Origin: Candidatus Aminicenantes bacterium
GTDB taxonomy: Bacteria; Acidobacteriota; Aminicenantia; Aminicenantales; Saccharicenantaceae
Length of the DNA: 64,000 nt
Assembly (NCBI GenBank): GCA_963725825.1
Contig: CAVSAI010000029.1
Location: 54,185-118,184, forward strand
Reading direction: 5' to 3'
The stretch's first letter is position 1. Each line of letters opens with the position of its first letter. Below the pieces are notes generated by a model, which had not been told where the DNA came from, ran no database searches, and was given only the letters and a program-made list of their open reading frames with translations. The translations under genes were made by a program, and so were the position numbers. Of this stretch, positions 14,469 through 28,326 are shown piece after piece.

Positions 14469-14517
14469 CGATTCCTCAGATCCAGGGTTTGCATTCTTGA
14501 TCGGCACGGAAGCCACC

Positions 14518-14745
14518 CCGCGCAGGGGTGTTCCTGGAGGAGCGGCGGAAAGCGGAGTCTTCGGAGCGACCCGTCAGAATCGAGGCTGAGCACTCGAAGC
14601 CACGATTCTGATAAATATCTTGAAAGAGGGGTCTTTTCGGATATTTCCCAGCACCGCTCCTCCGAGTCACTCCGGAGCGGTGCTGATGGTCGCTGCCAAG
14701 AGTCCGCTCCCTGCCGGCAGCAGGGTGGCTTTCTGCCGGTCGCAG
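14518..14745 (+). repeat. Copy 1 of a structured non-coding repeat element (three hairpins: 14575-14610, 14649-14685, 14714-14739)
   Basis: Alignable with 22613-22850 (shared blocks cgcaggg..gtgtt, cagaa..ttctg hairpin, taaatatc, cagc.ccgc..gcgg.gctg hairpin, tgatg.tcgct.c.aaga.tccgctccctgccgg). Substitutions between the copies preserve base pairing. Confidence 0.6.
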
Positions 14746-14822
14746 ACAGATTTGCTAGGCTGGGGCAATCGTGCTATGAATAGAGCATCGGGGGCGGTGA
14801 AATCCTGATCCGACAGGAGGAT

Positions 14823-15212
14823 ATGCTTATGGTCGAACGGATCACCGAGATCTACGTCATCCTGGAGAACAAGCCGTCGCAGCTGGGAGACCTCTGCAGC
14901 TTCCTGGCTGAGAACGAGATCAACGTTGACGCCATCGGCGTTTTCCACGACACGGCCAAGCTCGTCGTCCAGCAGCTCAACAAGGCGGTCAAGCTCCTGG
15001 CCAAGCTGAACTATACGACCGAGCTTCGCGACGTCCTCAGGGTCGACCTCGAGAACAGGCCAGGGGCCCTGGCTGAGCTCACGACCAAGCTCGGGGACGA
15101 GGGCATCAACATCGAATACTGCTACGGCACCCTGTCCCGGAAGGGAAACGGCGTAGCGCTTGTCCTGGACGTCTCGAATATCGACAAGGCTTGTCAGATC
15201 CTCGGGGTCTAG
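14823..15212 (+). CDS. ACT-domain-containing small protein
   Basis: 129 aa, two ACT-like segments. Strong RBS aggagg 7 nt upstream of the ATG. Confidence 0.65.
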   Translation: MLMVERITEIYVILENKPSQLGDLCSFLAENEINVDAIGVFHDTAKLVVQQLNKAVKLLAKLNYTTELRDVLRVDLENRPGALAELTTKLGDEGINIEYCYGTLSRKGNGVALVLDVSNIDKACQILGV

Positions 15213-18897: not shown

Positions 18898-21531
18898 CTA
18901 TTTCCCCGGATAAAGCAGGGCGTTCAGCAGGAACTTATACGTCCCGTGGGATTGGGCCCGGTTCTGGCACCTGATCCCGATCAGGATGATCCGGCCGTCC
19001 TTGTACTTCGTATCGACGACGGCGGCTTTCCGGGTCAGGTATTCCTCGCCGAGCAGCCAGCCGCTGAGCAGGACCTCGTCCTCGGGGTATGCGGCGACGA
19101 CCTTGCGGTCCCAGTCGAAGGACGGCGAGAAGGTGTTCAGGGCCAGGCTGTTGACGAACATGGCCGCAGCCTCCTTTGGCATGCCGTAGCCGATCGGGGT
19201 CTCGTTGTCGACCAGGATCCTGAGGATGGAGGTCGGGCAGAAGAACTTGGTCCGGTCGACGCCGGTGAGGGCATTGCGGGCCGGGGCGCCGAACTCGCTG
19301 ATGGCGAACTCCGAGGCGCCGTTGAGCGCGACCATGACGCCGCCCTTCTCGACAAAGGCCTTCAGGGCGTCGACGCCTTCCTGACCGATCCCGCCTTCGT
19401 ATTCGGGAGGGACCGGGCTCTGGCGGAACATCCGCGCCATGGGCGACTCCGCGCCTCCCGGTCCGCCTCCCGGGGCCGCCCCGGGCCGAGTGCCCTTGAT
19501 GGTGTTGGTGTTCTCATCGGCGAAGATGATGACGTCGAAATTCGCCCGCAGGTCGACCTTCTGGTCTTTGGCGCCCTTGATGTCGGCGTTGTGGAGCGTC
19601 TTATAAGGGATGGCCATGTCATCGAAGACGTAGCGCGTCCAACCTTCGTCCGCGTTGCCGCGCCACGACTGGAAGAGTCCGATGCGGGGGAACTTGACCG
19701 CGGCCTTTTCGAGCGCGGAGACGTCATCGACGTCGAGGACGGCCAGGTCCAACTTTTCGGCCAGCGCCGGGAGCGCCTTCTTCACCTCAGCCGAGTTCTT
19801 GACGATAAAGGCGCCGGCCTGGAGATCGTGGCCCTTGACCGAGGCCCTCGATCTCGTCCGCGAGATCTCGGCGCCGTCCTTGAGCAGAGCGATCGCCATG
19901 GCGTAGGACGCGTTGACCCGCGGGTCGAGGACGAAATAATCGCTCTTGCCCTGGGTCGGGACCTTGGGATAGGGCACGGACTCGATCTTTTCGAGCTTGG
20001 CCTCGAAGGGCTCGGCGACCTTGTCGCAGAGGACGCCCATCTGCAGGGGCAGCGTCCAGGCGGCGTTGTCGTAGGGCGGGACCGGAGGGCCGCCGGGATA
20101 TTGCCGCATGTCGGGGTATTTCTGCTTATCGAGGAGCGCCCAGGCAAAGGTCCGGTAGGGCTGGGCCGTTTTGACGACGAAGGACCCGGCGTTGTAGAAC
20201 CGGCCGCCGGCGATAAAATCGGCCTTGGCCTGATGGACCTCGACGCCGCCCGTCTTCAGGACCTCGAGCATCTTGAGCATCGTCGGGTAGTCCCGCTGGA
20301 CGGCCGGGATGACGAAGGCATAGGGCTGATCTCCGTCCAACTTTTCGACGGAATTCTTGTTCATCTTGAAGAAGTTGAACAGGATGTCCTCCTTATGGAG
20401 GGAGGCCGTCTTGAGCAGGCTTTGGGACAGCACGAGCTCATAGTCCACGATGTCGCGGAGCCGCCACGAGCCGCCGGGCCAGGGGTCGATGAAATCCATC
20501 CGCTTCTCGTAGAAGTCGGACTGGATCTCCGTGGGCTCGATGAAGATGGGGCTGGCGACGCGCACCGAGGCCGCCTCGCTGAGGCAGCTCAGGACGTTGT
20601 GGAGCCAGCCGGTGTCGTCGCAGGCCCCGATCCACCAGGCCGTGTAGGAGCGGCCGTTGACGATGCCGCTCATGCCGTGCTTCTGGAGCTCGTAGCTCAT
20701 CTCGGTGCCGATGAGGTTGACGCCGCGCCAGACCGACGGCTGGATGTTCGGCAGCGGCGGGTCCATAAATGGGGGCACGAAGAGCCGGGCGCCGTTGGAG
20801 CCCTGCTGGTGTTCGTCGAGGTGGATCTGGGGCAGCCAGTCCTGATAGAGGACCTTGGTCACGGCCCGGGTCTCGGGCAGGTTGAACATGTACCAGTCGC
20901 GGTTGTTGTCGTGGCCCGCATAGACGTGGTAGAGCCAGGGCATGTTGCCGCCCTCGTATTGGGTGCCGACGTATTTGCGGTACCAGTCGACGACCATCTG
21001 GTTGCCGTCGGGATTGTGGCTCGGAACAAGGAGGAGGATGACGTCGTTGAGGATCTTTCCGGCGTCGAAATCGGTCTGGCCGGTGACGAGGTCGTAGGCG
21101 AGCTCCATCGACATCTGGGAGGCCCCGATCTCGGTCGCGTGGAGCGAGCAGCTGATGAGGACGATCGCCTTGCCTTCCTTGGCCAGCTTGCGGGCCTCGT
21201 CGACCGACGTCACGCGGGGGTCGCGGAGCTTGTGCGTGATCTCCTTCCAGCGATCGAGCTTGGCCAGGTTCTCAGGTGTCGAGATCGCGGCCATGATGAT
21301 CGGCTTCTTCTGGACCGATTCGCCGATCGTGAACAGCTTGAGCTTGTTCGTCTCCTGGGCCAGCTTCTCGAAATAGGACTTGATCTGGGTATAATCGGCG
21401 AGCTTGCGGTCCTCGCCGACCTTGAAGCCGAGGAACTTGTCCGGCGGCGTCTGGGCCGCGAGAGGCCCGACGGCCAGGATGAGGGCGGTCAGGATGAGGG
21501 CGATCGGAATGAAGCGTCGGGATCTTTTCAC
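18898..21531 (-). CDS. Secreted M14-family zinc carboxypeptidase (large, multi-domain)
   Basis: Signal peptide. HATEIGASQ and PSHNPDG zinc-binding and catalytic motifs. 877 aa. Confidence 0.8.
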   Translation of the reverse strand: MKRSRRFIPIALILTALILAVGPLAAQTPPDKFLGFKVGEDRKLADYTQIKSYFEKLAQETNKLKLFTIGESVQKKPIIMAAISTPENLAKLDRWKEITHKLRDPRVTSVDEARKLAKEGKAIVLISCSLHATEIGASQMSMELAYDLVTGQTDFDAGKILNDVILLLVPSHNPDGNQMVVDWYRKYVGTQYEGGNMPWLYHVYAGHDNNRDWYMFNLPETRAVTKVLYQDWLPQIHLDEHQQGSNGARLFVPPFMDPPLPNIQPSVWRGVNLIGTEMSYELQKHGMSGIVNGRSYTAWWIGACDDTGWLHNVLSCLSEAASVRVASPIFIEPTEIQSDFYEKRMDFIDPWPGGSWRLRDIVDYELVLSQSLLKTASLHKEDILFNFFKMNKNSVEKLDGDQPYAFVIPAVQRDYPTMLKMLEVLKTGGVEVHQAKADFIAGGRFYNAGSFVVKTAQPYRTFAWALLDKQKYPDMRQYPGGPPVPPYDNAAWTLPLQMGVLCDKVAEPFEAKLEKIESVPYPKVPTQGKSDYFVLDPRVNASYAMAIALLKDGAEISRTRSRASVKGHDLQAGAFIVKNSAEVKKALPALAEKLDLAVLDVDDVSALEKAAVKFPRIGLFQSWRGNADEGWTRYVFDDMAIPYKTLHNADIKGAKDQKVDLRANFDVIIFADENTNTIKGTRPGAAPGGGPGGAESPMARMFRQSPVPPEYEGGIGQEGVDALKAFVEKGGVMVALNGASEFAISEFGAPARNALTGVDRTKFFCPTSILRILVDNETPIGYGMPKEAAAMFVNSLALNTFSPSFDWDRKVVAAYPEDEVLLSGWLLGEEYLTRKAAVVDTKYKDGRIILIGIRCQNRAQSHGTYKFLLNALLYPGK

Positions 21532-21623
21532 GGACGACCTCCTGCGGAAGATCGAAAGGTTTATCTATCACCGGGGGGAGAGGCCTGTCAAGGAGTGCTG
21601 GCGCCGCCCCCGCCGTTGGCGCG

Positions 21624-22313
21624 CTAGTCGCGCGACGAGCGCAGCAGGAACATGCGCAGCAGCTGAACGGCGGCCATGGTCGTGGCGGCGACGTAGGTCA
21701 GGGCCGCGGCGCTCAGGACCTTGCGGGCGCCGACCATCTCGTCGGGAGTGAGGAAACGCCGCTCTTCGAGCAGGGCCAGGGCCCGCTTCGAGGCGTTGAA
21801 TTCGACGGGAAGGGTGACGACCGAGAAGGCCACCGCCCCGGTGAAGAGCAGGATGCCGATGTCCATGAGGATGTTGGAGCTGCCCCTGCTGAAGATGAAC
21901 CCGACGAAGAAGAGCGGGAAGGCCAGGGTTGAGCCGAGGCTGGCGGCGGGATAGATGAGAGACCGCAAGGCCATCGGCTGGTAATGGTCGTGATGCTGGA
22001 GGGCGTGGCCCGTCTCATGGGCGGCGATGCCGAGGGCGGCGATCGACGCGCTGTCGTGAACGCCCTGGGACAGGCGAAGGACCTTCTTCCGGGGATCGTA
22101 GTGGTCGGTCAGATTGCCCGGCGTCTTTTCGATGGTGACTTCGCCGGCTCCGGCCGCCTGGAGCAGCTGATAGGCGGCCTGGGCCCCGGTCATGCGGGAT
22201 GATGCGGAGACCTGGCTGTATTTCCGGTAAGCCCCCTTGACCCTGGCCTGGGCATAGAAGGCCAGGATGAGGGCCGGGATGACAAGCAGGAACGTCGGAT
22301 CGCCGAATAACAT
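21624..22313 (-). CDS. YugP-family membrane zinc metallopeptidase
   Basis: HETGHALQH HExxH motif and TM segments. Start chosen at MLFGDPTF (22313) because of a strong aggagg RBS; the ORF-track start at 22340 lacks an RBS. Confidence 0.7.
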   Translation of the reverse strand: MLFGDPTFLLVIPALILAFYAQARVKGAYRKYSQVSASSRMTGAQAAYQLLQAAGAGEVTIEKTPGNLTDHYDPRKKVLRLSQGVHDSASIAALGIAAHETGHALQHHDHYQPMALRSLIYPAASLGSTLAFPLFFVGFIFSRGSSNILMDIGILLFTGAVAFSVVTLPVEFNASKRALALLEERRFLTPDEMVGARKVLSAAALTYVAATTMAAVQLLRMFLLRSSRD

Positions 22314-22372: not shown

Positions 22373-22610
22373 AATGGGGCCGGCCGTGCTAGACGGGGAG
22401 CTAGCGGTGCCCTGTGGCCCACAATCCGCTCAAGTGGGGTCGAATTCCCTGCCGAGGCTTCCCTCTTTCTGGCCGGTGCCCTTGCACGTGGCGCTGAAGG
22501 CTGGGGTCCTGCGCGAAGGGCTTCCCGCGAACTCCGTCAGGACCGGAAGGTAGCAGCGGCAACGGGACGGTTCTTGTGCGGCAGTCAACCTCGCCGGAGC
22601 CGGCGGCTCG
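22373..22610 (+). ncRNA. ffs: Signal recognition particle RNA (long, Alu-domain type); boundaries approximate
   Basis: GUCAGGACCGGAAGGUAGCAGC at 22535-22556 matches the conserved helix-8 motif, with GGAA tetraloop at 22545-22548. The closing pair is A-U, a compensatory swap relative to the E. coli U-A. 5' region GGGGUCGAAUUCCC (22434-22455) resembles the Alu-domain motif of Bacillus-type SRP RNA. Confidence 0.5.
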
Positions 22611-22612
22611 GG

Positions 22613-22850
22613 ACACGCAGGGAGAGTGTTGTCGGAGCAGGGTGCACGGTCATCCTACCGCAGCGAGCGAAGCGAGCGGAGGCGCAGAAATCCCCCGGAG
22701 ATACACAGAGGGGGATTTCTGCTAAATATCCGAGAAGAACTCTTTCTTTATTTTCTCCCAGCGCCGCCTCTCCGTGTTGCTCCGTGGCGGCGCTGATGTT
22801 CGCTTCGAAGACTCCGCTCCCTGCCGGTCCCCCTTCCCCCACGGGGGCTT
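22613..22850 (+). repeat. Copy 2 of the structured non-coding repeat element (hairpins 22685-22721, 22759-22795, about 22829-22847)
   Basis: Same block order as 14518-14745. Hairpin stems differ in sequence (cagaaatccccc/gggggatttctg vs cagaatcg/cgattctg; cagcgccgcc/ggcggcgctg vs cagcaccgctcc/ggagcggtgctg) but remain perfectly paired. Confidence 0.6.
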
Positions 22851-22906
22851 CGGAGCGAAAAACCTCACCGCCTTGAGAGGAAATTCGACAAGAGGGAACA
22901 AAGGAA

Positions 22907-24806: not shown

Positions 24807-26093
24807 ATGCTCGACCCGAAATATGTCCTGGAAAACCTTGAATCCGTTCAGAATAGGCTAGGGGCGCGAGGCCCACGGATCAGTCTGGACGAGTTCGTCC
24901 GCGTCTCCCGCGAAAAAAAGGACGTCCTCAAGAAGACCGAGGACCTCAGGGCCGTCAAGAACAAAGCGTCGGAAGAGGTTTCGCGGCTAAAGAAGGACGG
25001 CAAAGACGCCTCGACGATCATCGCCGACATGAGAAAGGTCGGCGACGAGATCGGCGCGCTCGAGGAGCGGCTTAAGGCCCTGGACGAAGAGCTCAAGTCG
25101 ACCCTTCTCAACATCCCCAATATCCCCCACGAATCCGTTCCCGTCGGGAAGAGTGCCGAGGACAACAAAGAGGCCCGGCGCTGGGGGAGCCGGCCGGAGT
25201 TCGCCTTTCAGCCGCAGGCCCATTGGGACGTCGGCGAGAAGCTCGGCATCCTCGACTTCGAGCGGGCGGCCAAGATCACCGGCTCGCGGTTCACGGTCTA
25301 CTTCGGCGCCGGGGCCCGGCTCGAGCGGGCCCTGATCAACTTCATGCTCGACCTCCACACCCGCGAGCGCGGCTTCACCGAAGTCCTGCCGCCGTTCATC
25401 GCCAACGCCGAGAGCCTGACCGGGACGGGCAACCTGCCCAAGTTCAAGGAGGATCTGTTCAAGCTCGAGGGCTTCGACTGGTACCTCATCCCGACGGCAG
25501 AGGTGCCGCTGACGAACATCTACCGGAACGAGATCCTCGACGGCGGCGTCCTGCCGACCCGCTTCGTGGCCTATACGCCCTGCTTCCGGAGCGAGGCGGG
25601 TTCTTACGGCAAGGACGTCCGGGGCCTCATCCGCCAGCACCAGTTCAACAAGGTCGAGATGATGATCTTCAGCCGGCCCGAGAGCTCCTTCGACGAGCTC
25701 GAATATATGACGGCTTCGGCCGAGGAGGTCCTGAAGCGACTCGGACTTCACCACCGGGTCGTGCTGCTCTGCACGGGCGACATGGGCTTCGCCAGCGCCA
25801 AGACCTACGACCTCGAGGTCTGGATGCCCAGCCGCGACGGCTTCATGGAGATCTCGTCCTGCTCGAACTGCCTGGATTTCCAGGCCCGGCGGGCCAACAT
25901 CCGGTTCAAGCGCGAGGCCAAGGGCCGGCCCGAGTTCGCCCATACGCTCAACGGCTCGGGCCTGGCCGTCGGCCGGACCGTCAGCGCCATCCTCGAGAAC
26001 TATCAGCAGGCGGATGGCTCGGTCGTCATCCCCGAGGCCCTGCGGCCGTTCATGGACGGTCTCGAGCGCATCTCATCAACAGCGAAAAAATAG
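24807..26093 (+). CDS. serS: Serine--tRNA ligase
   Basis: N-terminal coiled-coil arm and class II core motifs ([28 protein letters not shown]). Confidence 0.95.
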
Positions 26094-26099
26094 ATCGGC

Positions 26100-26189
26100 G
26101 GAGGGATGGCCGAGTGGTTGAAGGCGGCGGTCTTGAAAACCGCTTTCCGGTTCTCCGGAACGGGGGTTCGAATCCCTCTCCCTCCGCCA
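26100..26189 (+). tRNA. tRNA-Ser (anticodon UGA), type II with long variable arm, CCA encoded
   Basis: GGAGGGA acceptor pairs with UCCCUCC; D-arm GCCGAGUGGUUGAAGGC; anticodon loop CUUGAAA; T-arm GGUUCGAAUCC; ends G-CCA. Confidence 0.95.
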
Positions 26190-28232: not shown

Positions 28233-28326
28233 GGAGAGGTGCTGGAGTGGCTGATCAGGAACGCCTGCTAAGCGTTTGCCCTGGCTTAAACCGGGGCCGC
28301 GGGTTCGAATCCCGCCCTCTCCGCCA
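28233..28326 (+). tRNA. tRNA-Ser (anticodon GCU), type II, CCA encoded
   Basis: GGAGAGG acceptor pairs with CCUCUCC; anticodon loop CUGCUAA; long variable arm; T-arm GGGUUCGAAUCCCGC; ends G-CCA. Confidence 0.95.

Follow-up and report, generated by a model that had tools for sequence, protein, structure and literature searches.

The locus and its two related regions

The DNA analysed here, in the following called the window, is a stretch of 64 kb from a genome of Candidatus Aminicenantes, and two of its regions, at 14518-14745 and 22613-22850, had been described in an earlier note as the two copies of a structured non-coding element. Copy 1 lies between the gene of a FAD-oxidase and that of an ACT-domain protein, and copy 2 lies at the SRP RNA gene, the 3' end of which is at about 22644-22649 according to Rfam and to the comparison with the related locus L020, whose SRP RNA is about 97% identical; the repeat of copy 2 begins about 8-13 nt downstream of this end. 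At the Rfam gathering score, the window contains only the SRP RNA and two tRNAs, and the best sub-threshold match on the element itself has an E value of at least 0.11 in a search that extended to E <= 10.

Several other observations were made in the window. tRNA-Ser genes are found at 26100-26189 (anticodon TGA) and 28233-28326 (anticodon GCT), the first of them directly after a 428-aa ORF (24807-26093) in a gene order that is common to L020. The stretch 18898-21627 is covered by two long, overlapping ORFs, one of 893 aa on the plus strand (18946-21627, no Pfam match) and one of 877 aa on the minus strand (18898-21531); judging by the codon-position GC (GC3 0.90) and by homologues in other loci, it is the latter that is more likely to be the real gene. 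The sequence AATCGTGCTATGAATAG at 14767-14783, which precedes the start of the ACT-domain gene by about 40 nt, is kept in three of four orthologous loci (L198, L199 and L201), the spacers of which are otherwise unalignable, and it is probably a promoter or operator of that gene. A sub-threshold match to the Rfam Hsp17 RNA thermometer at 14787-14831 (22.3 bits, with a gathering score of 45, and an E value of 0.11) overlaps the ribosome-binding site and the start of the same gene and is probably due to chance.

The similarity of the two regions that had been claimed is real, as the pairwise alignment has 74% identity over about 340 columns, and both regions fold much more stably than their shuffled counterparts (z = -4.3 and -4.2). 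It also holds that the stem sequences differ between the copies with the pairing intact: the stems 14649-14660/14674-14685, 22684-22696/22710-22722 and 22759-22768/22786-22795 are all 100% complementary. The linker TTCTGMTAAATATC and the run TCCGCTCCCTGCCGG have two occurrences each within the 64-kb window, and no more.

An 88-nt unit in head-to-head doublets

The two hairpins that had been seen in each copy do exist, but both belong to one 88-nt unit and are inverted relative to each other. Reverse-complementing the first hairpin together with the TAAATATC linker gives the GATATTT head together with the second hairpin, and each of the window copies is thus a head-to-head inverted doublet. The unit was defined from the flanks of 72 genome loci that were found with the tail 20-mer AAGANTCCGCTCCCTGCCGG. 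It consists, in this order, of the head GATATTTCCCAG, a variable stem of 12 bp, a conserved loop of 13 nt (CTCCGAGnnGCTCCG) and the tail GATGGTCGCTCCnAAGAnTCCGCTCCCTGCCGG; the hairpin core has 37 nt, the whole conserved unit 88 nt, and the lead on the 5' side of the head is weakly conserved and often reads AAGACTCnnTTC. When the window was searched with R1, which is a covariance model of the single 88-nt unit, four units were found and nothing else (Table 1), and what had been regarded as a two-copy element turned out to be represented by four units in the window and by many in related genomes.

Table 1. Units of the repeat and adjoining features at the two window copies (E, E value of the R1 search)
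Feature	Position	Strand	Remarks
Copy-1 composite, whole	14510..14731		imperfect palindrome of 222 nt, outer arms AAGCCACCCCGC / GCAGGGTGGCTT around the head-to-head doublet
Copy-1 left unit	14542..14629	-	R1 71.5 bits, E 1.1e-18, full length 1-88; tail degenerate
Copy-1 right unit	14630..14717	+	R1 105 bits, E 1.9e-28
SRP RNA gene (bacterial large SRP)	22384..22649	+	Rfam RF01854, 153.9 bits (gathering score 60); context, outside the repeat
Copy-2 left unit	22657..22740	-	R1 40.4 bits, E 1.3e-09; tail truncated and degenerate; hairpin 22684-22722
Copy-2 right unit	22739..22827	+	R1 91.2 bits, E 2e-24; hairpin 22759-22795
O-arm module after the copy-2 doublet	22828..22885	+	TCCCCCTTCCCCCACGGGGGCTTCGGAGCGAAAAACCTCACCGCCTTGAGAGGAAA; aligns with the right arm of four composites of about 350 nt in one MAG

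The right unit of copy 1 has the head GATATTTCCCAG, the 12-bp stem 14649-14660/14674-14685, the loop TCCGAGTCACTCC and the tail GATGGTCGCTGCCAAGAGTCCGCTCCCTGCCGG, and the left unit includes the earlier first hairpin (14574-14611) and the TAAATATC linker, which is the unit head in reverse complement. The inverted arms of this copy are 92% complementary at 14510-14521/14720-14731 and 79% complementary at 14543-14571/14688-14716, and the left outer module of the composite occurs without units in the relative L199. The box "cgcaggg...gtgtt" that had been taken to be shared by the copies is not homologous: in copy 2 it lies inside the SRP RNA gene and is common to a relative that has no doublet at that site, and in copy 1 it is an outer repeat module. 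A third GC hairpin had also been listed, and it is present in copy 2, but as a separate repeat module, the O-arm, which flanks many units and which in copy 2 also aligns with the O-arm palindrome found by itself behind the SRP RNA of L020.

Copy number, distribution and arrangement

Among species-representative genomes, the tail 20-mer AAGANTCCGCTCCCTGCCGG matches 72 loci, about 64 of which are in MAGs of the Aminicenantes/Acidobacteriota type, and the highest number of exact matches in a single MAG is 11 (a MAG of 4.1 Mb). A search of metagenomes with a second motif gave at least 120 loci, and in viral contigs this motif had no match, for which reason a phage or plasmid origin of the unit was rejected. 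With R1, 101 units were detected in 479 kb of genome loci in addition to the four of the window, and at least 131 in 574 kb of metagenomic DNA among the loci listed for the second motif; taken together, about 1.1 Mb of Aminicenantes DNA from motif-targeted loci, genomic and metagenomic, contains at least 236 units, counted among the matches listed.

Among these matches, the units form 175 clusters. In 115 of these a unit stands by itself and in 9 the arrangement is tandem; of the inverted doublets, as known from REPINs, 50 are head-to-head and a single one is tail-to-tail, and both window copies are head-to-head. Units also form mosaics with other modules, namely the O arm (TCCCC..GGGGATCTTCGAGGC..GCCTCGAGAGGGA), a P module (AGGGAACACCCCGAG) and truncated half-units. 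The units exist singly, in head-to-head pairs, or nested inside other palindromic modules.

Nearly all units in the loci listed are intergenic, in both orientations, and the genes beside them are housekeeping genes with no relation to one another (DPP-IV peptidase, SDR, sigma-54 activator, ABC ATPase, ECF sigma factor, NlpC/P60, Ffh, Xer-like recombinase and rplQ). Convergent, tandem and divergent intergenic regions with units number 39, 62 and 24 in these loci vs 148, 477 and 126 in the baseline, which means that convergent regions are mildly enriched (31% vs 20%) and that divergent regions are not avoided. As the enrichment in convergent regions is mild, divergent regions are not avoided, and scans for the consensus of promoters and terminators were empty, a role as terminator or promoter was rejected.

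Some sites are occupied across genera by a unit in the same orientation. A unit follows rplQ in six loci, co-directional and at a distance of 4-130 nt, and the xer-like gene in at least three, co-directional and 60-70 nt away in three loci, and the hosts of these same-site units have Ffh proteins that are 74-87% identical. Copies at such sites can thus persist for a long time or be re-acquired, but a function for the host would agree with these sites equally well, and a secondary role in the host is possible; copies downstream of the same genes across genera may serve, for example, as 3'-end hairpins. It is common for units to lie right at the 3' end of a stable-RNA gene, examples being the SRP RNA of the window and the tRNA genes of L041 (2739-3791), in which a pair of tRNA genes is followed after 10 nt by a doublet and a third tRNA gene is preceded, at a distance of 11 nt, by two more units. 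A general link to structured-RNA genes was rejected, as most doublets have no RNA gene nearby.

Covariation of the stem

A covariance-model search and a covariation check, of the kind that had been proposed in the earlier note, yielded many copies in related genomes and a strong covariation across the 12 stem pairs. Compensatory double changes were found in 12 of the 12 pairs, and 36 distinct perfect stems occur among the units of the matches listed. In a set of 123 distinct metagenomic units from the matches listed, which is independent because it was kept out of model building, 92.6% of the cells are paired vs 71.3% in shuffles, double-change cells number 297 vs 80, and slid controls reach at most 52.7% pairing. 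The stem sequence is free and Watson-Crick pairing is kept, and the flanks and the 13-nt loop are conserved.

The claim that selection acts on the secondary structure of a nucleic acid and not on a peptide is confirmed by this metagenomic set. A small peptide encoded by the overlapping ORFs 14620-14808 and 22574-22876 can be considered practically out of the question. These ORFs can be aligned in frame as had been stated, and the match of 24 residues (63% identity) would be what one expects of a peptide, but it is limited to these residues, all of which are inside the repeat unit, and the substitutions keep base pairs, not residues. The unit further occurs on both strands, truncated, nested and in more than 200 unrelated contexts among the matches listed, and this presence in both orientations and many contexts leaves the peptide unsupported.

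Besides the stem there is an isolated pair in the tail. The two bases on either side of AAGA (positions 68 and 73 of the unit model, 14697/14702 and 22807/22812 in the window) covary as a Watson-Crick pair in 157 of 173 units of the matches listed, the combinations being GC in 88, CG in 45, TA in 23, AT in 1 and other in 16 units, and the bases next to this pair cannot lengthen a helix.

The mismatches that do occur bear on the question of which nucleic acid is folded. Functional RNA helices favour wobble pairs. In 149 unique stems among the matches listed, the mismatches were G.T in 36, A.C in 67 and other in 72 cases, and on neither strand are wobble pairs seen more often than mismatches of the transversion type. 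The missing preference for wobble fits a need for true Watson-Crick pairs, as in a DNA hairpin or cruciform, or a folding of both strands. A folding of the complementary strand had been considered on the basis of 61 motif-selected units with 26 A.C vs 3 G.U; in unique stems the numbers became 32 vs 21 and then 67 vs 36, and the proposal was withdrawn. The asymmetry of A.C over G.T that remains after de-duplication is weak.

Presence and absence at orthologous sites

The gene order from the FAD-oxidase to the ACT-domain gene is kept in four relatives, the ACT proteins of which are 86-94% identical, and in all four the region between these genes has no unit and a length of 107-328 nt vs 354 nt in the window. 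At the SRP site of L020, the O-arm palindrome follows the SRP RNA and there is no doublet; a doublet is found 2.1 kb away. As the orthologous sites in close relatives are empty, both window copies are presence/absence polymorphisms, and closely related genomes have gained or lost units relative to each other.

These empty sites also have to be considered for the reading that had been favoured before, which is that of a structured RNA family, either as sRNA genes or as modules of 3'-UTRs and operon ends, in which the hairpin and the C/U-rich tail would be active in the transcript, e.g. by stabilising 3' ends, by attenuation or by pairing with targets. The strong covariation of the stem and the conserved loop are what such an RNA would have, the co-directional units after rplQ (six loci) and the xer-like gene (three) would agree with it, a GC hairpin and a T-rich run often come after the tail (e.g. 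...GGGGTCTTTCGG), and the excess of A.C over G.T in the matches listed (67 vs 36) could mean that wobble is tolerated on the complementary strand. The orientation of single units is inconsistent, however, since co-directionality was seen for 24 of 48 genes on the head side and for 29 of 45 on the tail side, and 50 of the 175 clusters in the matches listed are inverted doublets. Also the wobble pairs, which in these matches are on neither strand commoner than transversion-type mismatches, speak against an RNA, and consensus scans predicted a sigma-70 promoter or an intrinsic terminator at neither window copy. There is no match to an Rfam family, the copy number far exceeds that of known multicopy sRNAs, and both window copies are missing at the orthologous sites. 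With this copy number, both orientations, inverted doublets, no wobble enrichment, no promoter or terminator and empty sites, the small RNA or structured 3'-UTR is left unsupported and is judged unlikely. The family is judged to be one of interspersed palindromic DNA repeats and not a two-copy regulatory RNA.

Mobility and the search for a mobilising gene

Four composites of about 350 nt with arms of about 150 nt occur in one contig, and they are about 90-95% alike in spite of unrelated flanks. No direct repeat that could be a target-site duplication was found at the edges of these 4 composites and of 7 type-1 doublets, edges that are only approximate. At L090 (5057-6440), two minus-strand and three plus-strand units bracket an insert of 916 nt, and L037 has a plain doublet at that site. 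The product of the insert is a 164-aa protein that carries a signal peptide and has no match in Pfam; the insert might be cargo, or it might have entered the centre of the doublet.

A classical MITE, that is, an internally deleted insertion sequence with terminal inverted repeats on which a DDE transposase from elsewhere in the genome acts by cut-and-paste, would be compatible with the inverted repeat of 176-350 nt, with the several near-identical copies in one contig, and with the inverted unit arrays around the 916-nt insert of L090 in place of the plain doublet of L037. On the other hand, target-site duplications are seen at 0 of 11 aligned copies, about half of the units are single, and free stems with invariant flanks are unlike the terminal inverted repeats of the DDE type. 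There is no transposase between or beside units in about 1.1 Mb, nor was a full-length insertion sequence with unit ends found in this DNA around the units, and the insert of L090 codes for nothing but the signal-peptide protein. A MITE of this kind is thus very unlikely. What the earlier note had named as the mark of an ordinary MITE, dozens of copies with terminal inverted repeats and target-site duplications, is seen in part, with the copy number and the inverted-repeat architecture being there and the duplications not.

Clustering of about 1100 ORFs from 184 loci gave no recurrent ORF family near the units other than housekeeping families, which led to the rejection of an autonomous element. 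No transposase is bracketed by units either, the bracketed genes being that of an M28 peptidase and that of the secreted 164-aa protein without assignment. With the E. coli RayT as query (L193), a single ORF was picked, on the minus strand of L123 (2712-3323), with a Pfam Y1_Tnp score of 38.1 bits and a stop codon 53 nt from a unit. This Y1 gene is bracketed by a different palindrome, GGGGACAyGTACC..GGTACrTGTCCCC. Each of the four Aminicenantes orthologues of the RAYT gene (L194-L197; 67-73% identity; Y1_Tnp) has 2-8 copies of that palindrome on its flanks, and within 3 kb of these four genes there is no unit (the best covariance-model match has 12.9 bits). Near units the palindrome is rare, with 20 copies in 1.1 Mb. 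As the RAYT genes, that of L123 and its four orthologues, are flanked by the other palindrome and not by the unit, the 88-nt unit is not the REP of the lineage RAYT, and this RAYT was rejected as mobiliser of the units.

The RAYT of the lineage is a single-copy, RAYT-like Y1 transposase of 203 aa with the HUH motif NHVHF and the catalytic Tyr in RYVELNP, and its palindrome has 29 nt (GGGGACAyGTACC-nnn-GGTACrTGTCCCC); gene and palindromes are located at L123:2662-3437 and at about 2560-3760 in L194-L197, and in the 64-kb window the palindrome does not occur. Together they look like a genuine REP-RAYT system that is distinct from the 88-nt unit.

Interpretation and implications

It is likely that the feature is a head-to-head inverted doublet of an 88-nt unit from a family of interspersed, mosaic, intergenic palindromic repeats that is restricted to Aminicenantes and is of the REP/REPIN/BIME/MITE-like type. 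The hairpin may be formed by single-stranded or cruciform DNA, possibly also by RNA when transcribed, and it would then be read by a trans-acting protein together with the invariant flanks and the loop. Such a recognition would explain why pairing is perfect and the stem sequence free, and it might be the way in which the element is copied or maintained. The recognising enzyme would have to be one other than the lineage RAYT.

A more specific reading of the unit, which is conceivable and at the same time doubtful, regards it as a recognition module, either of a single-strand DNA enzyme other than RAYT or as a host-domesticated RNA or DNA element that is bound by a conserved Aminicenantes protein at operon ends. 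In the first version, the enzyme would read the hairpin, the loop CTCCGAGnnGCTCCG and the tail with the isolated pair around AAGA, and would insert units at the apex of existing palindromes. The loop and the tail, both invariant, and the pair that covaries in isolation suggest that there is a specific protein partner, and if the unit is such a module, it is this partner that is reflected in the invariance of the 35-nt single-stranded segments across genera.

For the family of repeats itself, there are practical consequences. The repeats imitate structured RNAs in that they fold well (z about -4) and have compensatory changes, and if they are not masked they will give rise to false RNA calls in Aminicenantes bins; with the covariance model and the consensus the units can be masked. 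With the family, an uncultured lineage that is abundant in sediments gains a further class of repeats, and its genomes contain, besides a REP-RAYT system, a hairpin repeat that is unrelated to it. The units can be used as presence/absence markers between close strains. No paper was found in which Aminicenantes are joined with REP-type repeats.

Comparison with known elements

With MITEs and the known intergenic repeats (Correia/NEMIS, ERIC/IRU, RUP, BOX, RIME), the family shares a length of 100-350 nt, the doublet with terminal inverted repeats, the intergenic position and the multiple near-identical copies per genome, and it is modular as are BOX and RIME. It differs from them in that no target-site duplication and no parent insertion sequence was found in about 1.1 Mb around the units, that half of the units are single half-elements, and that the stem sequence is free with the pairing kept.

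The ends of IS200/IS605-type elements and of PATEs are hairpins that are read as single-stranded DNA by Y1 HUH transposases. The unit is similar to these in the apparent recognition of a hairpin with short conserved flanks, and the absence of duplications and of wobble tolerance fits a structure at the DNA level. Differences are that no Y1 gene is associated with the unit, that units pair in inverted and not in direct orientation, and that no cleavage site or guide pairing could be identified, the pair around AAGA being a candidate for it at best.

Of the options given in the earlier note, it is the third, a REP- or MITE-like element, that is favoured by the evidence, and a close comparison is with repetitive extragenic palindromes and their doublets, known as REP, REPIN and BIME (Bertels & Rainey 2011, PMC3116915; PMC3733652). 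In classical REPs the hairpin foot carries a conserved tetranucleotide, GTAG or CGTC (PMC3733652), whereas the stem-foot consensus of the unit is TTTCC/CAG...CTG/ATGG (on the other strand CCAT/CAG...CTG/GGAAA) and contains neither. REPs have 20-40 nt, whereas the unit is bigger and more elaborate, having 88 nt with long invariant single-stranded flanks and loop, and the RAYT genes of the lineage are flanked by a different palindrome and not by the unit. REP super-families with alternative complementary stems, a predominance of head-to-head dimers and frequent heterodimers have been described, and whole families, those of the CGTC type, have no transposase of their own (Di Nocera et al. 2013, PMC3733652). 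Like these, the 88-nt unit is extragenic and, in the motif-targeted loci, present in high copy number, it has a hairpin core (12-bp stem, 13-nt loop) with alternative complementary stems, it forms predominantly head-to-head dimers that are often heterodimers, and it shares with REPs and BIMEs the mosaics with short modules, the lack of target-site duplications and the occurrence of some copies at orthologous sites.
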